Assembly: GCA_964367355.1 (NCBI GenBank)
Contig: CAYIWY010000006.1
Coordinates: 15,968-79,967 of the forward strand
DNA length: 64,000 bases
Source: an uncultured Gammaproteobacteria bacterium
Lineage (GTDB): Bacteria; Patescibacteriota; Microgenomatia; Woykebacterales; RBG-16-39-9b
Reading direction: 5' to 3'
Positions within the stretch are counted from its first letter, which is position 1, and every line of letters begins with the position of its first letter. The notes beneath the pieces were generated by a model. The model was not told where the DNA came from and did not search any database. It saw only the letters and a program-made list of their open reading frames with translations. The translations under genes were made by a program, and so were the position numbers. Of the stretch, positions 12,065 through 39,728 are shown in pieces.

Positions 12065-12361
12065 CTAATCCTGTCTCTTTCTTTGAAAGTGCTTCTTCAC
12101 TTGCCAAAGAGTAAATATCGCCCCCGATATTACCGCAACCCTGATATACCAAGCTGCTGCCTCATGCGAAATAGCCTGGCGGCTATAGTCGCGAGCGATT
12201 TGCATCAGTTGCTCGGCTCTTCTCGGATCTGGATCGTTTTCCAGAATCCTTTCCGTGTTATGTTCATCCTCCTCCAGTAAAGCTGCTTCTTCTGGATCTA
12301 AAAGAACCTCTGTATCCCTACGAAAACGGTGGTGCAGGAATTCGTCTGGGTGGTGAATCAC
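12065..12361 (-). CDS. Hypothetical acidic protein with C-terminal TM (tail-anchored), GC-rich
   Basis: 98 aa; acidic N-terminal region; C-terminal AAAWYIRVAVISGAIFTLWQV. Confidence 0.4.
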   Translation of the reverse strand: MIHHPDEFLHHRFRRDTEVLLDPEEAALLEEDEHNTERILENDPDPRRAEQLMQIARDYSRQAISHEAAAWYIRVAVISGAIFTLWQVKKHFQRKRQD

Positions 12362-12374
12362 CTACAACTCCTCC

Positions 12375-12701
12375 TTAAGCTACCTTCAACAGAATCAATC
12401 GTCTTGGCTTGGTGCTGAGAAACTTAACCGGCGCACTGCGCAGGTCAACACCACGTTTGCGCAATCGTGCAAACAGACGGTGTAAATCTTTGCCATAACC
12501 AGCCAGTTTTTGATCCCTGACAACCACCCATCTATCCGGGTATTTCAAAGTCCACTCAGCTCGGTGAGAGTCAAGAAAGATACAATCTGCCCGAAAACGA
12601 CTCATACTTTCGTCCATTTCCTTGATCTGCTGTGGTGTCAAGGTCAATGGCTCAATTTTGGCCCTGACTTGATCAGGTCTGTACCTACTAATCTTAGTCA
12701 A
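12375..12701 (-). CDS. Hypothetical protein, possibly DUF5678-like small domain, GC-rich
   Basis: 108 aa; W...YPDRWVVVRDQKLAGYGKDL resembles the small beta-rich DUF5678 pattern; weak. Confidence 0.35.
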   Translation of the reverse strand: MTKISRYRPDQVRAKIEPLTLTPQQIKEMDESMSRFRADCIFLDSHRAEWTLKYPDRWVVVRDQKLAGYGKDLHRLFARLRKRGVDLRSAPVKFLSTKPRRLILLKVA

Positions 12702-19732: not shown

Positions 19733-19936
19733 TTAGTTAGCTGGCTCTGTTGTCATAACAATCTGCCCCGGACAGTGGTCGCAGCGAAACTTTGCCTGCC
19801 GAAACAATTGTAGGGGAAGAGTTACCGGAACGAATTCGCATTTACACTGATCACAGTATGCAGAGAGAATACGAATTCGAGCTTCACTACTTTCGATTGG
19901 TTCTCCTCTTTCGTTTTCCGAATCAATGCTGTCCAA
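19733..19936 (-). CDS. Small Cys-rich protein (zinc-ribbon-like), GC-rich islet
   Basis: 67 aa; CDQCKC ... CDHCPGQ. Confidence 0.35.
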   Translation of the reverse strand: MDSIDSENERGEPIESSEARIRILSAYCDQCKCEFVPVTLPLQLFRQAKFRCDHCPGQIVMTTEPAN

Positions 19937-20495: not shown

Positions 20496-21326
20496 GTGCA
20501 GCGATTTTTTAGTTTGCTAAAAATCAACTCCGCTGCTGCCCTTATCCTCTCTGCCACATTTTTAGGACTTTTTGCCAAACCGGCTCGCGCTGACACGACT
20601 GGTTTTTTGAGCTTAATTAATTCCTACCGACAGCAAAACGGGGTTGGAACGCTGAGTGAAGATCAGAGTTTAACTAACTCTGCCTGCTGGTTGGCAGCAG
20701 ATTTGGATATCAACGGCTTTAGCCACACAGATTCATTGGGTCGGGATATGTCAAAAAGGCTAGCTGATTTTGGAGTTAATGTATTCGGTATCGGTGAGAA
20801 TATTTTCTATACCACTTCTGGTTCTTCTGCTAACTATGCGTTTGATGCTTGGAAAAATTCTCTTGGACACAATACCAATATGCTGGGTGGTTCCTATACT
20901 CGAATTGGTATTGGTAGGATCAATGTCTCTGGCCGCTGGTACTGGACCACTGACTTTGCTGGTGGGACAGCAAGTACATTAAATAGTCAATGTGGTTCGA
21001 CAACAAAACCTACTCCAACTCCACCGGTTGTGAAAAAAACAATTCCTACTCCAATCCCAGCGCCAATAGTAGTTCAAACTCCGCCAACCGAAGTTGTAGT
21101 CGCAACACCATCAGCCTTGGAACCAAATTTAGTTATAGCCACAAAATCAGCTTCAATTTCAGCTAAAGTTGTGAAGTTTGAAAATAATCAACCAAAAGAA
21201 CCTGCAATAAAAAGTTTGGTTAAAGGTTCATTCTTAACAATCAGTTTCGTGGGTTATTTAATTCTTTTTGGATTTATTATTTGGCAATTATTTCATCATT
21301 TCCGCTTGCCAATAACAGAACCTTAG
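20496..21326 (+). CDS. Secreted CAP (SCP/PR-1-like) domain protein with Pro/Thr-rich linker and C-terminal TM anchor
   Basis: GTG start; signal peptide; CAP motifs GHNTNML and WYWTTDFAGG; C-terminal hydrophobic segment. Confidence 0.7.
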   Translation: MQRFFSLLKINSAAALILSATFLGLFAKPARADTTGFLSLINSYRQQNGVGTLSEDQSLTNSACWLAADLDINGFSHTDSLGRDMSKRLADFGVNVFGIGENIFYTTSGSSANYAFDAWKNSLGHNTNMLGGSYTRIGIGRINVSGRWYWTTDFAGGTASTLNSQCGSTTKPTPTPPVVKKTIPTPIPAPIVVQTPPTEVVVATPSALEPNLVIATKSASISAKVVKFENNQPKEPAIKSLVKGSFLTISFVGYLILFGFIIWQLFHHFRLPITEP

Positions 21327-21566
21327 TAAGGAGTTAACTACCTGTATACGAGTATATTGGTGCTTTAATCTATTGATAAATTGAAACATAAAAATGAAAT
21401 GGAAAAAGAAAAACGACCTCTTTCGAAGTCGTATCTCTTCTTAAATTAACCTTTCTTAAGATTAACTTGAGTGAGGGGTGATCGAGCATTCGAGTTCAGA
21501 TTGAACAAGAATGTCGACGGAACCAATCGGTGTCTTTTTGAGACAGCGATCCCTCACCACTTTGTC

Positions 21567-21998
21567 TTACGACGAAGCGATGGGTTCCGGATTTTCCTGA
21601 TGCCAAAGGTCGGCGACCTCGGTGACGTACAGGCTGATGATTCGTGAAAGTTTCCTTTCAGCGTCTCGCCAGTCCAACACCTTGTCGTCGAACTTCACAC
21701 GGAGAGTCTGCGGATCGATGGTGACGTAGATGTCACGACCAACCCTCGTGTGCTCGCCGTACTCACTGCAGTCGAGGACGCGTCCGTCGTGAAACGAATT
21801 CGCCTTCGATGCGAGATCAACAAGCCCGATCCAAAGATCCAGCTCGGTGATTTGTTCCTGGCTTAGCACGACCACCTCCTTCGAACAGAGTACGAATTCA
21901 TTTGATTCACACTCTTTCTTAAGAAAACCAGCTTCCTGATTTGCTTGAGAGAGACTTCGGGTCGTGGCAAATGTTTTACATTCGCTCGCCGAAGTCAT
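21567..21998 (-). CDS. Hypothetical protein, GC-rich islet
   Basis: 143 aa ORF in a roughly 52-55% GC segment; no motif. Confidence 0.35.
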   Translation of the reverse strand: MTSASECKTFATTRSLSQANQEAGFLKKECESNEFVLCSKEVVVLSQEQITELDLWIGLVDLASKANSFHDGRVLDCSEYGEHTRVGRDIYVTIDPQTLRVKFDDKVLDWRDAERKLSRIISLYVTEVADLWHQENPEPIASS

Positions 21999-22028
21999 GC
22001 TCTTCTATTCAGTTGTCCAGGATGGAAA

Positions 22029-22235
22029 CTAGGAGTACCGAGAGGAGGGTGTCCAGGGCTCGGGTTCGGGATCTTGCGGATAAAAACCCCCATCGTCCAC
22101 GTCCCGCGAATCTCCCGATGTGTCCTCCAAGTCGTCCTCGTCTTCCCTATGGCGTTCATCGTACTCAGCATAGGCGGCTTCCGCCTCTGCGTCGTACCAC
22201 TTCGCCAACATTGACCCTAACCATGCGACTAACAT
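22029..22235 (-). CDS. Small highly acidic hypothetical protein, GC-rich islet
   Basis: 68 aa, Asp/Glu-rich; could be spurious. Confidence 0.25.
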   Translation of the reverse strand: MLVAWLGSMLAKWYDAEAEAAYAEYDERHREDEDDLEDTSGDSRDVDDGGFYPQDPEPEPWTPSSRYS

Positions 22236-22569
22236 TTCGTCCTCCTTGGACTGAAATCTGAATTCAAAGAGCTGAAAGGGTGCAAACTTGAGGCTTGTAC
22301 CCTTCCTTAAGACAACCAGCTCAAGGCTGATCTGCTTAAGGTACTTAAAAAGGCATCTGGTAACTAGAGAGAATATTAGCTTCTTGGTTAGATTCCAAGT
22401 AGCAGGCTGAGTAGATTCAATCCAGTTACTAAATGCCTTGCAATTTCTTAGTAACTATATTTAATTGTTAATACGTATAGTATAGCATACTTTTACGTGT
22501 TTGTCAAGTGCTATAGGTTAATGTCGTAATTACTCAATAGCTTTGCAACACTTTTAGACAAACAAAGTG

Positions 22570-23510
22570 GTAGGTGCCAGACTTAGGTTAGTTACAACAT
22601 TAAGAAAGGACACCTACCATGAATTACATTAGCAACCCTTATGCCCCTAAGGCAAGGAAGGAAGCAACTAATTGGGTGAAGAAAGGTTTGAATATTTCGG
22701 TTGTAGCCAGAATGTATGGGGTTAATAGAACGACTCTGTGGCGCTGGCTAAGAAAAGCTTCGAAACACTCTCGAGAGTTCATACCCACCTTACCCTCCCG
22801 ACCAAAATCTCATCCTAACCAAGTACAGGAGGAAACAATTAGAAGGTTAGTGGAACTGAGAGCCAAACTAGGCAGATGTGCACCGGTACTACACGCTCAC
22901 CTAAACTTAGAGGGGTATAAGATTAGCCTTTCTAGTGTTGGGAGAATACTGAAGAGAAAAGGCTTGACCAGAAAGAAGAAAAGAGCCAAATACTACGTTG
23001 CCTTGCCAAGACCACTTGCAGATTGTCCTGGAGCCTTGGTACAAGTGGATACCATTCACTTTGTTAAGACTAACGGCAGCCGGTTTTATGTGTACTCTTT
23101 GATAGATACCTACTCAAGGTTAGCTTACGCTGAGTACCACCCCAAGCTGAGACAGACAATAAGCCTTAAAGTTATTCAAAATGCCCAGAAGAGCTTTGGT
23201 TTTAAGTTTAGTACTGTGCAGACCGATAATGGACCAGAGTTTAAAGACTATCTGAATATAAGTTTAAGGAGAAATAAAGTCTTGCTGAGACACTCAAGAG
23301 TCAGGAAACCCAATGATAATGCTCATGTGGAGAGGTTTAATAGGACTATTCAGGAAGAGTGTTTTCAAGGCAGATTGCCTAACCAAAGAACCGCCTCTAG
23401 GCAAATAGAAGAATATTTAATATATTACAACCAAGAAAGACTACACCTAAGTCTGGGGCTGCAAACACCGACCCAATATGTTGCAAAGGTCCTGAACTAA
23501 TTACGAATGT
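22570..23510 (+). mobile_element. IS481-family insertion sequence (approximate ends)
   Basis: Single rve-type DDE transposase; terminal GCCAGAC (22575-22581) and GTCTGGC (23509-23515) form short inverted ends. Confidence 0.5.
22619..23500 (+). CDS. IS481-family DDE transposase (integrase core domain)
   Basis: N-terminal HTH; VQVDTIHF ... LIDTYSR ... TDNGPEF ... HVERFNRTIQEE. Confidence 0.85.
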   Translation: MNYISNPYAPKARKEATNWVKKGLNISVVARMYGVNRTTLWRWLRKASKHSREFIPTLPSRPKSHPNQVQEETIRRLVELRAKLGRCAPVLHAHLNLEGYKISLSSVGRILKRKGLTRKKKRAKYYVALPRPLADCPGALVQVDTIHFVKTNGSRFYVYSLIDTYSRLAYAEYHPKLRQTISLKVIQNAQKSFGFKFSTVQTDNGPEFKDYLNISLRRNKVLLRHSRVRKPNDNAHVERFNRTIQEECFQGRLPNQRTASRQIEEYLIYYNQERLHLSLGLQTPTQYVAKVLN

Positions 23511-23512
23511 CT

Positions 23513-23537
23513 GGCTCTGGTCGAGTATGTTGAAACT
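23513..23537. repeat. About 26-bp imperfect direct repeat, copy 1
   Basis: GGCTC-TGGTCGAGTATGTTGAAACT matches 25107-25135 (GGCTCGTTCTGGTCAAGTATGTTGGAACT). Confidence 0.55.
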
Positions 23538-23669
23538 TTTTACCTAGCAACCAAAGTAGAAATAGAACGATCAGAGTTTAAAGGATGCGTTTAGGAGAAA
23601 GTAGCCTAGACTTTTACAACTATCTAGTTAACAATATAGAAAGTTATTTATAAATCAAGTCTCCAACGC

Positions 23670-24974
23670 TTATTGATTAGTCTTTTCGTGACTTATTTTC
23701 CTTGGCCATAGTAAGTTGCCATTGACGTCATAGATTGGCAAGCAGCTTGATAGATTTTTTTGATAAACATGCATCATTTGATAGGCAATTTCTTCTGCCC
23801 ATTTAGAATATTGTTCTGGAAACTTGCTTGGATTAATTTTTTCTATTGTTTGTAAATCGTTAGCAACCATATCTCTTTCCTCTTGGGTAAGCCAGCCGAT
23901 TTGGTCGCGCTGCTTTTTCATATCTTCTAAAAATCGCTGTTGTTTATCAAGATTATCTTGGTCGATGCCATCCCCGCCTTTATATAAAATGATCCCTCTA
24001 AAAAATCTCGGTGCTACACGGGGTCTTAAGATATAACCATATGATGGAGTCCCTTCTGCATCAGGTTGTTCCGCATATTCCAAACGATTTAGGGTTAACC
24101 GGGGATAAAGCCATTGTAAAAGCTCTTTCTCATGTTTATCTTCTTTATCATCATCACTATTTATTTCATCGTCGCCTGGGTCTATTAACCAACCGTTTTC
24201 GTCTTCTACATAATTATCTGGTTCACTATATTTTTTGGCTTCTCCCTCGTGTAGCCTAGCTACGTCAAAAATTATGATTAATCCGTCGTGAATATTTGAG
24301 CGGCCTCCTCTTAGGTAACTTGAATCGGCGATTTTTTTTATTCCCTGCTCACCAATTATGTTAAAGTAGACGAAGGTTTGTGAAGGATCTTCTTTCATTT
24401 CTTTTTTCCATTGTGCAATAACGTCTTGTTTATCGGTACTTTTATTAATGGTACGCCTGGGCCCGACTTCGCCATGTCCTAGCAATCCGGTTTCCAGAAC
24501 AGAGTCGAGTGTTTTGGAGATTGTTAGTTTCGTAAATGCAGTTCCAGGGGTATTGATATCTCTAACTTTCCCCATTACTTTTTCTAGATCAAGTTGCGGT
24601 AATTCTGCAAGTGGGCTTTGCTGTGAAATATCTTCTGTGTCGATGTTGGCTTCCGCCAACAGTTTAGTGTTTAATGCTACTTCTGATCTGTTTGCAACAA
24701 TATCAGAGGATTGTTCGGAATGAGTGGTTTCGGTATCCCTAACCACTGTTAGCTGATCTCTTAACGCGTCTATCCGAGCTTCATCTACTTGTCTTCTTTC
24801 TTCAATTTCTTCTGGAGTTACTCCTTTAGGTGGAGGTACCGACGCTGGAACTTGATCTACTTGAGGTTTTTCTTTTGATTCGTCTTTCTTGAGTGGATCG
24901 TCTGATCCTAATTTTTCGCCTGAAATTTCATCTGGAGTTGGAGTAAAATCTTCTGCCATAAACAAACTATACAA
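23670..24974 (-). CDS. Hypothetical acidic protein (434 aa), cargo between the direct repeats
   Basis: Long ORF with no recognisable motif; Asp/Glu-rich. Confidence 0.55.
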   Translation of the reverse strand: MYSLFMAEDFTPTPDEISGEKLGSDDPLKKDESKEKPQVDQVPASVPPPKGVTPEEIEERRQVDEARIDALRDQLTVVRDTETTHSEQSSDIVANRSEVALNTKLLAEANIDTEDISQQSPLAELPQLDLEKVMGKVRDINTPGTAFTKLTISKTLDSVLETGLLGHGEVGPRRTINKSTDKQDVIAQWKKEMKEDPSQTFVYFNIIGEQGIKKIADSSYLRGGRSNIHDGLIIIFDVARLHEGEAKKYSEPDNYVEDENGWLIDPGDDEINSDDDKEDKHEKELLQWLYPRLTLNRLEYAEQPDAEGTPSYGYILRPRVAPRFFRGIILYKGGDGIDQDNLDKQQRFLEDMKKQRDQIGWLTQEERDMVANDLQTIEKINPSKFPEQYSKWAEEIAYQMMHVYQKNLSSCLPIYDVNGNLLWPRKISHEKTNQ

Positions 24975-25106
24975 TTAACTACTGCACAAGAAAAGATTTG
25001 ATTGCTTTATCAGGAGAGTAATAAATGAGGCTAACAAAAATAGTGTCAGAACTTAAAAAGCACTATTATAACAAGGTGAGTTGTTAATTTTAACGATCAA
25101 ACAATT

Positions 25107-25135
25107 GGCTCGTTCTGGTCAAGTATGTTGGAACT
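25107..25135. repeat. About 26-bp imperfect direct repeat, copy 2, abutting the polA stop codon
   Basis: See copy 1. Confidence 0.55.
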
Positions 25136-25136
25136 A

Positions 25137-27270
25137 TTAGAGGGGTTTCATCTGGCCCCAGTTTTGGCCGATTTTGGATTCAATAATCACTGGTACATCG
25201 AGTTTGAAAGTCTTCTCCATGGTTTCTTTGATTATTGGATAAATTTTGTCAACTTCTTTATCGGGCGTTTCAAAAACCAGCTCATCGTGAACTTGGAGAA
25301 TCATTTTTGTTTGGTAATCTTTAAGTTGACTGTCGAGACGAATCATCGCCGCTTTGATAATGTCAGCTGCTGTTCCCTGGACTGGCGCGTTGATTGCCAT
25401 CCGCTCCCCGGCGGCACGAAGATGATGATTGCCTTGCTTAAGTTCAATTAAATAACGGCGAAACCCACCGAGAGTTTCGACATAACCTTTAGCGTAAGCA
25501 TCGGTTAAAGTATTTTCGAGCCAAATCTTGACTCCGGAAAATTCTTCAAAGTAGCGGTCGATGATTTGTTTGGCAGTATCGTGATCAATTTTAAGTTGTT
25601 TGGCCAAACCAAAGGGAGAAATTCCGTACATAATTCCAAAATTGACAACTTTGGCGATGCGCCGATCGTCTTTAGTTACGTCTTCTGGCTTTTTATCTAA
25701 AATTTCCGCGGCAGTGCGAGTGTGAATATCTTCACCTTTTTGAAAAATTTCTGTCAAGGCTTTGTCCCCTGAGAGATGGGCCATGACTCGAAGTTCAATT
25801 TGGTTGTAATCAGCGGAAATTAATTTACTTCCAGCTGGCGCAATAAAAGCATTGCGCACCTTGATTCCCCACTCACCTTTGACGGGAATATTTTGCAAAT
25901 TGGGATTGGTGGAAGAAAGTCGGCCGGTTTTCGTCGCATCGGTGTGATAACTGGTGTGCAAACGGTTGTTAATATCAAGCAACGGTGGCAAAGCGTCAAC
26001 ATAGGTTGATTTAAGTTTAAAAAGTTCGCGATAAGATAAGAGCATCTCAATTGCAGGATGGGCGCCGGTTAACTCGATCAAAGTTTGTTCGCCAGTGCTA
26101 GCGTGTTCCTTACCCTTCTTGAAAGGAGTCAATCCAAGTTCATCAAAAAGTACGACTGAAAGTTGTTTTGGCGAATTAAGGTTGAACTCGTGGCCGATAC
26201 TTTTATAAATGTCTTTTTCTAGACCAACTATTTTTTTATCAATTTCTTTAGCCAGTTTTTCTAAATAATTTTTATCAACTAAAACGCCGCAGTTCTCCAT
26301 TTCGCGCAAAACTTTATCAAGTTCGCCCCTTTCCTGTTTGACTGGTTCGATTTGTTCTTGGCTGCCGAAAAGTTCGGTTTGATCTTCATGAATCGTAATT
26401 TTTTTATCATTAAGTTCAACATTTGGCAAACGCTTGATCAGACTCTTAAATTCCAGTTCCTCAAAAAGGTTGATCGCCTTCTGGTGATCGTAATCTGAAA
26501 GAATACATTTATTCAAATCGAGTCGGATCGGTGCGGCCGTATCAATCGTCGCTAGTTCTTTACTCATTTTGGCACTTTCAGCATCTTCCGCCAGCTTTTT
26601 ACTAATTTTTTCTGGAATTTTATCAAGGTTTTTGTAAATTTCTTCCACACTTCCAAACTCTTGAATTAGTTTGGTTGCCGTCACTTCGCCGATACCAGAT
26701 ACCCCTGGGATATTGTCAGAAGCATCACCGACTAAAGCTTTAAAATCAATCAGTTGAATCGGTTTAAAGCCGTACTTCTCTTCAAATTTTTTGCCGTCAT
26801 AAATATGAATATCACTCAAGCTTTTGCCCGGCATGTACGTCTTTATGTGGGTGTTAACCAGTTGCAGAGCATCACGATCACCAGTGACAATATCAACTTC
26901 GAGATCAACAGCTTGACGAGCTAAGGTGCCAATAATGTCATCAGCCTCGTAACCTTCCAAAACAAAGATTGGAATATTAAGTGCGTCAACAACTTCTTTA
27001 ATTCGTGGAAGTTGCTGGTGCATTTCTTCCGGCGCGGCAATGCGATGGGCTTTGTAAGCCGTGTACTGGGTATGGCGGAAAGTCGGGGCTTTTGTATCAA
27101 AGGCAACAACGGCATACTCTGGCTTGATATCATTTAAAACTCGCAGCAGCATTGAGGTAAAACCAAAGACCGCGTTCACTAGTTCCCCTTTTGAAGTTGT
27201 CAACGGCGGCATAGCGTGAAAGGCCCGGTGAAAGAGCGCGTGCCCATCGACAAGGACTAGTTTAGACATA
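25137..27270 (-). CDS. polA: DNA polymerase I, short form (5'-3' exonuclease plus polymerase, reduced 3'-5' exonuclease region)
   Basis: N-terminal LVLVDGHALFHRAFHA; polymerase motifs RRIAKVVNFGIMYG and QVHDELVFE; ATG MSKLVLV at 27270 preferred over the TTG at 27284. Confidence 0.9.
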
Positions 27271-27322
27271 ACTCTTTCTATCAAAAAAGTTTTTTCTCAT
27301 TCGAGTGGAATTTTACCTTAGT

Positions 27323-27375: not shown

Positions 27376-27798
27376 TTGGTAACTCGAACCTTCACTCGGC
27401 CAATTAAGGTTGTTACGGCTGTCATGGGCTTGGATGGTCATGATCGAGGTGTCAAAGTAGCCACCCACGCTTTTGGAGACGCGGGTATGGAGACTATTTA
27501 TTTAGGAATTCGCCAAACCGCAGTTCAGGTTGCTGAAGCAGTTTTGCAGGAAGACGCCGATATTGTCGGTTTGAGCGTTCACTCCGGTAATTTTGAGATC
27601 CTTAAGCGTCTCGTCAGGGAACTAAAAATTCGCGAGGTTAATCTCGATGAGGTGCTTCTTTTAGTTGGCGGTGTCATTCCGGAAAGAGAAATTGCCGAAC
27701 TGAAAAACGCAGGCTACAACTACGTTTTTGGCCCAGGGAGTTCAACTGGAGAAATGGTTCACGTTATTAAGGAGTGGGCAAAAACACACCCAAGATAA
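27376..27798 (+). CDS. Stand-alone cobalamin (B12)-binding domain protein (mutase small-subunit-like)
   Basis: DxHxxG motif (LDGHDRGVKV) and downstream Rossmann-like GGVIP pattern of B12-binding domains; 140 aa. Confidence 0.7.
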   Translation: MVTRTFTRPIKVVTAVMGLDGHDRGVKVATHAFGDAGMETIYLGIRQTAVQVAEAVLQEDADIVGLSVHSGNFEILKRLVRELKIREVNLDEVLLLVGGVIPEREIAELKNAGYNYVFGPGSSTGEMVHVIKEWAKTHPR

Positions 27799-33416: not shown

Positions 33417-34289
33417 ATGATTAAAATTAAAGATGCCCACTCAAAATTTGTAGATCATCTCAAGTCTCAAGGTCGCTCCAGTGCGACTGTTTTAGCATAT
33501 GGAAAAGATATTGAACAGCTCGCTACCTTTCTTGAAGAACTAAAAAAGAGCCACGTCCACGAAGTTGGTACTAAAGATCTACAAGCTTTTATGGCTAAGT
33601 TGGTTAAAGAAGGCTACACCCCAAAAAGTGTTTCCCGAAAAACAAACTCAACTAAAACTTTTTTCCGGTTTCTAAAGGTTAATGAAATTATCACCGACGA
33701 TCCAGCTACACTTCTTGAACACCCTAAATTTGAGATGAAACCGCCAAGGATTCTTTCCAAGATGGAGTATCGCGCTCTCCGCGACGCTGCAAGAAGTGAT
33801 ACTCGACTCTCAGCAATTATTGAGCTACTTCTGCAAACCGGAATTAGGATCGGTGAGCTGGCTAAGCTAAGACTTCCTGATGTAAAGTTTGGCGAAAACT
33901 CACGGGCCGGAGAACTTCATGTTCCAGCTGGAGAAAGCTACCCAGACAGAAACGTTCCTTTGAATAAAGCCTGTGAGACTTCTTTGAAGAAGTATCTGGA
34001 TATCCGTCCGCAAACTAAAGACGATACTCTTTTTATTACGAAAACTGGCCGTCCGCTACTCGTTAGAAATATCAGAACAGCAATTGACCGTTATTTCCGC
34101 CTCGCCGGAATTAAGGGAGCCAAGGTAAACGACTTGCGCCACACTTTTGTCGCTCATCACTTAATGAGTGGTACGTCTTTGGTATTGGTAAGTAAGCTTG
34201 CCGGTCACAAGCGCTTGGCTACAACTGAAAAGTATCTCAACTTGATTCAAAGCCGGTTGGATGAACCAGTTAAGCTAGAAGAGCTGTAA
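33417..34289 (+). CDS. Tyrosine recombinase (XerC/XerD-like, phage integrase family)
   Basis: C-terminal catalytic residues R...HxxR...Y (LRHTFVAHHLMSG ... TTEKYLNL). Confidence 0.8.
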   Translation: MIKIKDAHSKFVDHLKSQGRSSATVLAYGKDIEQLATFLEELKKSHVHEVGTKDLQAFMAKLVKEGYTPKSVSRKTNSTKTFFRFLKVNEIITDDPATLLEHPKFEMKPPRILSKMEYRALRDAARSDTRLSAIIELLLQTGIRIGELAKLRLPDVKFGENSRAGELHVPAGESYPDRNVPLNKACETSLKKYLDIRPQTKDDTLFITKTGRPLLVRNIRTAIDRYFRLAGIKGAKVNDLRHTFVAHHLMSGTSLVLVSKLAGHKRLATTEKYLNLIQSRLDEPVKLEEL

Positions 34290-38639: not shown

Positions 38640-38832
38640 AAATTCTGCTTTTTAGATTTAAAATAACTTTGGATTATCATCTAAGTCTGCTAGTTCTGTC
38701 AATAGTATAGCCGTTTTTTAATTCCAACGCCAAACAATTAGGATTAATAAACTTCGTTTAATTACGTTGAATAAAATGAGGGCCGCCTCTTAGATCATTC
38801 GATCCCAAGAAACGGCCCTCTTTACCTAAGTC

Positions 38833-39597
38833 TTAATTCCTGTATGGGACGTAGACAAAAGTAACGACTAACATTCCCCCCAAAGCAACTGCCAGAACCA
38901 AATCAAGGGCGATTTTGACTTTCGTGCCATTGCTGATGCCGTTGACTGTCTCTGGTCCGGTTCCGGTCTGCGGCAAAACGATTTTCGGTGTTGCAATCGG
39001 AACAACGTGAGTCGTCGTGATCGCAACCACCCGAGTCGAAGTAGCACTCGGCGGTACTGTTGTTGACGTTGCACTCGACGGAACCGACGTGCTTGTCGGT
39101 GTCGTCGGGGTACTGGTCACTGTCGGTGTTACCGGCGTTGACGTCTTCGTCGGCGTGTTTGTCACCGTTGCCGTAACAGTTGCCGTCGATGTAGAAGTTG
39201 GCGTTGGCGGCTTCGTGCAGGGCTTAAAGCTGTCACTTTTTTCTGGTGTTGCGGTTTGTTCAACTCGAATTGAATTGATACCTCCACGCGCGTTGGAAAT
39301 ATCCAACGGCCCGAAGGAAACCATGCCACCCTCTTTACCGGCAACAACTGTTATCTTCTGACGACTTCCAGGTATTTCTACCCAGAAACCTTCACTCGGG
39401 CGATGATCGGTGACATAAATGTCAAAGCTCCCTGCAACGGGAACCCCGATTTCACCGACCACACGACCGTTTTCATCGCATTCGGCGTGAATACTCCAAG
39501 CATAAGCTGGAGTAACTGAAATTGCACCCCAAACCGTGACCAAAGATAGGGCCAAGAGCGGGGTGACTAGGACAAGCCTAATCCATGACCTTTTCAC
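38833..39597 (-). CDS. Secreted Thr/Pro-rich surface protein with LPXTG-type sorting signal
   Basis: Signal peptide; TPTxT repeats; LPQTG then hydrophobic segment and charged tail. Confidence 0.55.
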   Translation of the reverse strand: MKRSWIRLVLVTPLLALSLVTVWGAISVTPAYAWSIHAECDENGRVVGEIGVPVAGSFDIYVTDHRPSEGFWVEIPGSRQKITVVAGKEGGMVSFGPLDISNARGGINSIRVEQTATPEKSDSFKPCTKPPTPTSTSTATVTATVTNTPTKTSTPVTPTVTSTPTTPTSTSVPSSATSTTVPPSATSTRVVAITTTHVVPIATPKIVLPQTGTGPETVNGISNGTKVKIALDLVLAVALGGMLVVTFVYVPYRN

Positions 39598-39728
39598 TTC
39601 TTTCCTCCTCTACTTTTTCGTTGCTAACCATTTTGGTTAACTAAGTGTGGAAAAGCATAGCAGGTTTGAAGCTATTTGTCAACTACTATAAGACTTTCTT
39701 GAGAGATTAATTAAGAAAGTCTTGCGCT

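Follow-up and report, generated by a model that had tools for sequence, protein, structure and literature searches.

Intact IS481-like element and a repeat-bracketed gene in the hypervariable polA–CAP slot of a groundwater Patescibacteria genome

Overview of the locus

The DNA studied here is a stretch of 64,000 nt (referred to below as the window) of the contig CAYIWY010000006.1, which belongs to the genome of an uncultivated groundwater bacterium of the Patescibacteria (candidate phyla radiation, CPR) with a GC content of approximately 40%. In this window, a gene designated o434 is located next to polA between two copies of a short direct repeat (c1 and c2), and an IS481-like insertion sequence (IS) lies beside c1. 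The question raised by this locus is how the repeat was formed and whether the IS, or the integration of a cassette as suggested in an earlier note on this DNA, brought o434 to its place. The analysis showed that an intact IS481-like element was inserted by ordinary DDE transposition, with a 5-bp target-site duplication, into a hypervariable slot between polA and a gene encoding a CAP-domain protein, and that the repeat pre-dates this insertion and is unrelated to it. The best overall explanation of the locus combines the IS insertion in a variable slot with a repeat that would stem from the placement of the o434 unit; this account is held with a little less than even confidence. From left to right, the order of features is as follows: CAP gene, terminator, o100, o68, promoter-like site, transposase gene, c1, o434, promoter-like site, c2 and the polA stop codon.

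The IS481-like element

The ends of the element were set by retrieving and aligning the DNA around transposase homologues with 76–88% identity. Conservation among the related copies starts exactly at position 22525 (CGTAATTACTC...) and stops exactly at position 23505 (...CTAATTACG). In addition, the metagenome contig L041, with a length of 986 bp, consists of the IS element and nothing else. The following features were assigned:

22525–23505, plus strand: IS481-like insertion sequence, complete, 981 bp, delimited by conservation among six related copies (L035–L041)
22525–22550, plus strand: left terminal inverted repeat CGTAATTACTCAATAGCTTTGCAACA, the same in each of the six copies, pairing with 23479–23505
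23479–23505, plus strand: right terminal inverted repeat, reverse complement CGTAATTAGTTCAGGACCTTTGCAACA, from the alignment of related copies and a repeat search
22520–22524: left copy of the target-site duplication AATGT, read from the sequence
23506–23510: right copy of the target-site duplication AATGT, read from the sequence
22619–23500, plus strand: transposase, 293 aa, single open reading frame (ORF) free of frameshifts, with an N-terminal helix-turn-helix (HTH) and an rve DDE core

The ends are imperfect inverted repeats of 26 and 27 nt (CGTAATTA...TTTGCAACA), and the right one overlaps the final codons and the stop codon of the transposase gene. Among the inverted pairs from a repeat search of the window, one covers the inner part of the left inverted repeat. 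The terminal inverted ends proposed earlier, GCCAGAC and GTCTGGC, had to be replaced by these boundaries: GCCAGAC (22576–22582) is located 51 nt inside the IS and varies in the relatives (ACCAAAC, GCCAAAC, GTCAGAC), and GTCTGGC (23509–23515) is flanking DNA that overlaps the target duplication. The AATGT duplication is perfect and abuts both IS ends directly. An independent copy of the IS in the contig L037 is flanked by an analogous 5-bp sequence, AAGAT; thus, this IS group makes 5-bp target duplications. An intact element of this kind, with exact ends and a target duplication, is thereby documented in a Patescibacteria genome.

The transposase matched the Pfam families rve (2e-12), rve_3 (7e-15) and HTH_23, with catalytic residues D144, D203 and E238. 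Its best NCBIfam match was IS481 (NF033577), followed by IS3 with 120.5 bits. The IS481 score of 194.9 bits was below the curated cutoff of 224, and the element, for which the earlier note had claimed an IS481-family rve-type transposase, was therefore classified as IS481-like and not as a certified member of the family. Of more than 2000 transposase homologues, many were on short contigs (~1 kb) from other metagenomes; this pattern is typical of multicopy ISs that break assemblies and suggests that related copies are multicopy elsewhere. In the genome studied, one copy was found, intact and at the same position in every assembly; the DNA examined for copies of the IS and of the repeat amounted to approximately 82 kb, namely the window and 17–18 kb flanking it.

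A comparison with the IS481 family (ISfinder; NF033577) indicated that the element shares the single ORF of approximately 300 aa with the N-terminal HTH, the rve DDE core and the D..D..35..E spacing, as well as the length of about 1 kb and the imperfect terminal inverted repeats, and both the best profile match and the best plasmid matches are to IS481. Its 5-bp duplication is within the range of 2–15 bp reported for IS481-family target duplications (PMC10045372). However, besides the profile score, the element differs from the family in its low full-length identity (approximately 29–30%) to plasmid genes annotated as IS481 family transposases, in its ends, which are CG...CG instead of the TG...CA signature of IS481-type termini (PMC10045372), in the duplication of 5 bp versus 6 bp in most members, and in an apparent preference of its relatives for sites 8–9 nt from a (C)TATRRG motif beside promoters. 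Within the IS481-like group, the IS is by these comparisons a divergent new member.

The (C)TATRRG motif was found 8–14 nt outside the left end in all six related copies (positions 22505–22524 in the window, and L035, L037, L038, L039 and L040). In four of the six, it forms the upstream edge of a divergent promoter of the type TTGAC(A/T)-N17-TAnAnT. This suggests that the IS group prefers insertion sites immediately upstream of promoters of one kind. In the window, the IS landed upstream of the o68 promoter, 8–9 nt from a (C)TATRRG motif like its relatives, and now separates c1 from this promoter.

The direct repeat

Two copies of the repeat were located using a repeat search, a mismatch scan, BLAST and flank alignment:

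23513–23537, plus strand: repeat copy c1, GGCTCTGGTCGAGTATGTTGAAACT
25107–25135, plus strand: repeat copy c2, GGCTCGTTCTGGTCAAGTATGTTGGAACT

The copies share a 21-nt core, CTGGTCRAGTATGTTGRAACT (23517–23537 and 25115–25135), which is identical at 19 of 21 positions, and a GGCTC prefix; with the prefix, c1 comprises 25 nt and c2 29 nt, the two differing by a 4-nt indel. With up to three mismatches allowed, the core had two matches in the 64 kb versus 0.01 expected by chance. BLAST aligned c1 with c2 over 33 nt at 82% identity, the alignment of one o434 flank against the other gave z = 7, and the next-best ungapped match in the window scored 21/30 versus 30/30 for c1/c2. The direct repeat described in the earlier note is therefore real.

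Copy c1 starts 12 nt past the transposase stop codon, 8 nt past the IS end and 3 nt past the target duplication, and copy c2 ends 1 nt short of the polA stop codon. In the other IS copies, the right flanks did not contain the c1 motif. Since c1 is outside the IS and its duplication, and is not present in the flanks of other copies, the repeat was neither carried nor created by the IS, and the suggestion that the IS landed beside an existing repeat as a separate event, leaving its own perfect AATGT duplication, was borne out. An IS-free allele would read ...GCTATAGGTTAATGTCTGGCTCTGG....

No copies of the motif other than c1 and c2 were found in the ~82 kb. The idea of a REP-like (repetitive extragenic palindromic) or terminator motif recurring at many gene ends, which the earlier note had named as a refutation of an att duplication, was rejected given the presence of just two copies and the lack of a hairpin, and this favors the earlier description. 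In four relatives, the best matches to the motif were at the level expected by chance, the intergenic DNA being unalignable at such divergence, and none of them showed a single motif copy following polA.

A number of other candidates were considered and rejected. A third repeat copy after the stop codon of the CAP gene (~21340–21366) was at chance level, with 14/22 positions matching without gaps and a gapped rank of 220 among 2130 windows. Motif half-sites in the relative L015, namely ACTTGACCA upstream of the CCTATAGCGCTTGAC promoter and TTGACAATTTGAACGGAGC after polA, had scores of 8–9, which are reached by 26% of random windows. Three 18-mer matches in viral contigs did not extend beyond 18 nt and corresponded to chance expectation. 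Structures of the dif/Xer, attC or parS type were dismissed because the motif lacks usable dyad symmetry and does not fold significantly. An integron cassette with attC was likewise dismissed; there was no significant fold, and the genes called in the surrounding 21 kb include only one tyrosine recombinase, with XerC/D-like domains. An att site derived from an RNA or tRNA was also rejected: no Rfam match reached half the gathering score of its family, and the distance to the closest tRNA is 6 kb.

The slot between polA and the CAP gene

The genes and signals that delimit and fill the slot are the following:

25137–27284, minus strand: polA, stop codon at 25137–25139
20496–21326, plus strand: CAP-domain gene, stop at 21326, convergent with polA
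21413–22235, minus strand: GC-rich (52%) two-gene unit with its terminator, filling the rest of the lineage-specific slot
22029–22235, minus strand: o68, small ORF, first in the o68–o100 operon
21567–21869, minus strand: o100 (143 aa if the start is taken at 21998)
21413–21432: terminator hairpin of the o68/o100 unit

In this genome, the slot thus contains two minus-strand transcription units, o434 and the GC-rich pair of small ORFs o68/o100. The PolA protein was 80–86% identical to PolA of four relatives (L015–L018; metagenome-assembled genomes labelled Patescibacteria, Saccharimonadales and similar). In L017, the CAP-domain gene is directly abutted by polA, and in L015, L016 and L018 the genes downstream of polA are different in each. 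In every relative, the C-terminal tail of PolA diverges immediately after the conserved GQNWGxM sequence (positions 25137–25150 in the window, ~12136 in L015, ~12150 in L016, ~3152 in L017 and ~11590 in L018), and thus homology among the relatives ends at the polA stop codon, which is the site of c2. These comparisons show that the polA–CAP gap is a hypervariable slot in this Patescibacteria clade. The 3' end of polA is a recombination breakpoint, and the junction a clear recombination hot spot, in the clade.

Contigs identical to the window were found in at least 10 samples, including the Hainich groundwater assemblies. The organism is present, among others, in SRR32696696–706, ERR3858110–112, ERR3654040 and the Hainich H52 runs underlying ERZ1292618 and ERZ1292621. 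One arrangement was shared by every contig with the exact transposase, o434, o68 or CAP protein, no variants without the IS or without o434 being present among them, and every contig aligned to the window was 100% identical to it across the locus.

The bracketed gene o434

The gene between the two repeat copies is located as follows:

23670–24959 (ATG start, 429 aa) or 23670–24974 (TTG start, 434 aa), minus strand: o434, the sole gene between c1 and c2
23670–24647: conserved domain of the o434 family (C-terminal 325 aa)

The o434 protein has a pI of 4.7. Its N-terminal part (about 100 aa) is acidic and disordered, and a conserved domain of approximately 320 aa comes next. Searches against Pfam, NCBIfam, PHROGs, PADLOC and the PDB sequence profile gave no match, so that the description of a single acidic gene without a recognizable domain was accurate. 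An exhaustive HMMER search revealed 301 cluster representatives (50% identity) of an o434 family, mostly 300–360 aa long and aligned to residues 105–428, whereas a word-index search from the family alignment recovered only three family members. The family is characterized by the motifs FNIVGR, LSxRVAPRxFxGIV and PIYDxxGNLxWP; within the domain, the residues K, G, R, P, G, W and P are invariant, and a Tyr and another Gly are fully or almost invariant, according to the alignment used. Modeling using AlphaFold was moderately confident, with a pLDDT of 68 for the full-length protein and, for the trimmed domain, a pLDDT of 73 and a pTM of 0.73 with more than 100 residues above 90. A Foldseek comparison of the models with PDB and BFVD revealed nothing significant. 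The top 13 PDB matches of the trimmed model were all ADP-ribosyltransferase toxins (TreX, pertussis S1, CARDS, DarT, LT, MTX, pierisin), at E-values of at least 0.25 and TM-scores of at most 0.40, and this resemblance of the model should be taken as a lead and not as a finding. The family is sizeable and unannotated, with a confidently modeled core and sharp motifs, and deserves a family definition.

The loci of the family (n = 32, metagenome) were found among housekeeping genes, namely dnaK–dnaJ, leuS, nusA, recG, ftsH, polA and mutM. Several members adjoin genes of DNA repair (polA, mutM, recG), and some are located beside MazF-like, RhuM-family or IS200-like genes. In L048 and L052, the family member is on opposite sides of dnaK–dnaJ. 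Such varied neighborhoods fit a relocation of the gene over evolutionary time. The family profile detected no o434 homologue within 10 kb of polA in 20 polA loci; the gene is absent downstream of polA in the four relatives, and the family is absent from the viral contigs.

Flanking repeats were not confirmed as a trait of the family: in 20 loci, 18 of which had testable flanks, there were 0 comparable brackets. A 17-nt repeat at the family locus of L062, considered as a possible bracket, proved to be a genome-wide REP-like palindrome located by an IS200-like gene. In this region of L062 (5100–6800), the palindrome CAAGGGTGCCCCTTG and its complement are present in at least seven copies within 1.7 kb, beside a gene for a 209-aa IS200-like Y1 transposase; together they look like a pair of REP and REP-associated tyrosine transposase (RAYT) in another Patescibacteria genome.

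As a whole, o434 has the look of a fast-evolving gene of the Patescibacteria chromosome that changes place in the course of evolution, and not of recent foreign cargo, and there is no evidence that it is mobile cargo or mobile now. Its native composition and its family of 301 clusters among housekeeping genes do not support the view of o434 as a cargo gene.

Predicted promoters

Two promoters were predicted by consensus match:

25065–25093, minus strand: predicted o434 promoter, TTAAAA-17-TATAAT, TG-extended, 10/12
22479–22507, minus strand: predicted o68–o100 promoter, TTGACA-17-TATACT, TG-extended, 11/12, preceded by CCTATAGCAC

They are the two best sigma-70-like sites in the region, and each is located before one minus-strand unit. 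In total, the region contains 10 promoter-like sites versus 7.9 in shuffled sequences.

Origin of the repeat

The preferred account of the repeat assumes that c1 and c2 mark the 5' edges of two stacked units, o434 and o68. A single crossover (Campbell-type recombination) within a short shared sequence would have brought the o434 unit, together with its own promoter, into the space between polA and the o68 unit; either short homology or a recombinase supplied in trans could have mediated it. The crossover would have duplicated the junction sequence on both sides of the o434 unit, so that the two copies share a common descent, and the IS would have been inserted beside c1 in a later step. The descent of both copies from one junction sequence, duplicated by a single crossover at a short shared site when the unit was placed, is put forward tentatively, as a proposal that is somewhat more likely to fail than to hold. 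If it holds, the significance of the locus is small. As o434 looks native, either the donor would have been compositionally similar or the event would be old. With regard to the integrated cassette of the earlier note, two parts stood, namely that direct repeats flank the segment and that the gene is absent at this site in the four relatives; the recombinase, the dyad symmetry and the foreign composition that a cassette might be expected to have were not found.

A number of observations weigh against the placement of o434 by recombination. Neither between the copies nor next to them is there an integrase gene or a gene for another recombinase; the closest tyrosine recombinase (33417–34289) is 8 kb away and, by its Pfam domains, has the look of a housekeeping XerC/D-type enzyme. 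The motif contains no dyad symmetry, and folding of c1 and c2 on both strands gave no significant hairpin (z from −1.3 to +0.8). No empty site with a single copy was seen in the relatives, and the available assemblies are all clonal and provide no population evidence on gain or loss. By composition, o434 is native: its GC content is 39.4% versus 39.8% for the window, its codon usage ranks 15th of 42 and its tetranucleotide distance is at the 71st percentile; the IS and the GC-rich unit deviate by the same measures. Moreover, three of about 15 independent family contexts share neighbors with the window, namely ftsH (L062), polA (L075) and mutM (L071), in distant Patescibacteria, the chance of which was estimated at ~0.02, allowing for the post-hoc choice of genes; o434 may thus be an old resident and not an insert. 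Finally, the core of c2 is located 21 nt upstream of the predicted −35 box of o434, and the core of c1 is 23 nt upstream of that of o68, where the spacing was computed after deleting the IS and one copy of the duplication (986 bp).

The last observation points in another direction, because a spacing of 21 and 23 nt is what a promoter-upstream element predicts, and neither a junction duplication nor a pure att scar does so. In turn, the position of c2 at 1 nt from the polA stop codon is predicted by an origin at a junction and not by a regulatory origin. Each of these coincidences has a chance of approximately 3–5% under the opposite hypothesis, and the evidence, with promoters that are predicted only, does not separate the two readings; the repeat may stem from a duplication at an insertion junction (att-like) or may be a promoter-upstream element. 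In the regulatory case, the repeat would be a cis-acting operator or activator site shared by two adjacent units, o434 would be a long-term resident, and the IS would have uncoupled one of the sites. The promoter distances, the native composition, the shared neighbors in distant genomes and the lack of a recombinase gene in the c1–c2 segment agree with this, and it is a possible, if doubtful, explanation. However, it depends on consensus matches in a region only slightly richer in promoter-like sites than its shuffled versions and on two instances, with no third site in the ~82 kb, and the motif has neither a dyad nor half-sites in direct repeat. An identity of 19/21 plus the GGCTC prefix exceeds the usual constraint on a binding site and points to recent common descent. 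In addition, no conserved counterpart of the motif precedes the promoters downstream of polA in the relatives or lies upstream of o434-family members elsewhere, and the position of c2 flush against the polA stop codon is left unexplained.

It was also considered whether c1 and c2 could be the attL and attR sites of a small cassette that lacks an integrase and can still be mobilized in trans, as a cis-mobilizable element or a module of a cassette array. The direct repeats bracket exactly one gene with its promoter, c2 is at the boundary of conserved and lineage-specific DNA, the content of the slot is different in each relative, and the gene for the tyrosine recombinase 8 kb away (33417–34289, plus strand; 290 aa, Phage_int_SAM_1 and Phage_integrase, XerC/D-like) is the only candidate near the locus for acting in trans. 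Two assemblies break at ~21458–21487, at the edge of the GC-rich unit of the slot, which could reflect variant alleles, but contigs also break elsewhere, for instance, at 25647 in polA, and all aligned assemblies are identical. Given further that the motif has no recombinase-type symmetry, that a third copy is absent from the far edge of the slot, that the motif is absent from the relatives and, apart from chance 18-mers, from viral contigs, and that family members elsewhere are not bracketed in this way, such a cassette is unlikely. A broader variant would regard the whole slot as a cassette array, the modules of which (o434; o68 + o100) are headed by a junction motif of 25–29 nt at a fixed distance from the promoter and are exchanged between strains at this motif, in trans or by short homology. 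This variant explains both the position of c2 flush at the polA stop codon and the equal promoter distances, and it is nevertheless considered quite improbable. If the repeat were a recombination site for promoter-bearing modules, it would bear on the gain of strain-specific genes in reduced, symbiotic genomes, and a true cassette array would be an integrase-less system of gene shuffling in an ultra-small genome.

The remaining two explanations attribute less to the repeat itself. In one of them, the IS either made the repeat, as a target duplication of the long type (IS481/IS1202), or mobilized o434 by ISEcp1-like one-ended transposition, with c1 and c2 as surrogate right ends. Discrete duplication lengths that include ~15 and ~24–29 bp are known in relatives of the IS481 family (PMC10045372), and TTTCAACA is common to the motif and the inner part of the inverted repeat (TTTGCAACA), the motif being oriented like the right inverted repeat. 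However, this resemblance is limited to 8–9 nt, c1 and c2 are both on one side of an IS of 981 bp with its own perfect duplication, no ends similar to inverted repeats adjoin c1 or c2, the bracketed gene does not encode a transposase, and the left inverted repeat and c2 have no matching flanking duplication. Since the IS has a 5-bp duplication of its own and c1 lies outside it, ISEcp1-like mobilization and a long duplication of the IS1202/IS481EU type are excluded, and an origin of the repeat from the IS is extremely improbable. In the other, an older local duplication or rearrangement left the repeat behind as a neutral relic, or c1 and c2 resemble each other by chance and have no function. 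The two copies only, the lack of structure and the lack of conservation in relatives would suit such a relic, but two matches against 0.01 expected, z = 7 and the gap to the next-best match make chance unlikely, and neither the gene-boundary position nor the matching promoter distances would be expected; this explanation is therefore very unlikely.

Comparison with known systems

Cis-mobilizable elements (CIMEs) are integrase-less islets flanked by att repeats in streptococci. The locus resembles them in having short direct repeats around a small segment without a recombinase, which occupies a variable slot adjoining the 3' end of a conserved gene. In contrast to CIMEs, no cognate integrative element or integrase was identified for the segment, the repeats are imperfect and have no recombinase-type symmetry, the content is compositionally native, and neither an empty site nor an excised form was observed.

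Putative mobile promoters and repeated promoter-upstream elements occur before unrelated genes. A short homologous sequence at a fixed distance upstream of the predicted promoters of two unrelated neighbors is similar to this; however, the copies number only two, homology does not extend to the promoters, and no regulator is known. A shared operator would be similar in position, but the repeat shows neither symmetry nor conservation.

In ISEcp1 units and in the IS1202 group and IS481EU, as in the window, an IS adjoins a gene whose boundary is a sequence oriented like the right inverted repeat, and a repeat of 25–29 bp would fit the long class of duplications (PMC10045372). The difference is that nothing but the 981-bp IS lies within the 5-bp duplication, and both repeats are located to the right of it.

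Other observations in and around the slot

The window contains two GC-rich islets, 21470–22330 (52%) and 38800–39690 (57%), in a genome of 40% GC, and these have the most deviant codon usage in the window. Both are behind a promoter of the form CYTATAG-N3-TTGACA (22503–22515 and 39678–39690). In the first islet, both small ORFs are preceded by the leader AGCTGGTTkTCTTAAGrAAGrGT, roughly 50 nt ahead of a strong ribosome-binding site. The product of the second islet is a Thr/Pro-rich protein with a signal peptide and an LPQTG motif.

The assembly breaks at the left edge of the GC-rich unit (21458–21487) were found in ERR3858110 and ERR3858111, and those at 25647 inside polA in ERR3858110 and SRR32696697; they could be due to strain variants or low coverage.

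Small proteins of 66–67 aa with the pattern CxxC...(A/Q)K(F/Y)RC(D/E)xC are encoded at 19733–19936 (minus strand) in the window and at 12356–12556 (plus strand) in L015, in both cases in slightly GC-rich DNA, and look homologous. Their slots differ, being the gap between mutM and the CAP gene in the window and the position directly 3' of polA in L015.

Between ftsH and polA, the window contains a gene for a 140-aa protein with a B12-binding domain (27376–27798, plus strand). No counterpart was detected by tblastn in L015, L016 and L018, in which the gaps between ftsH and polA are 54–113 nt long. This gene would be a further lineage-specific insertion in the neighborhood of polA.

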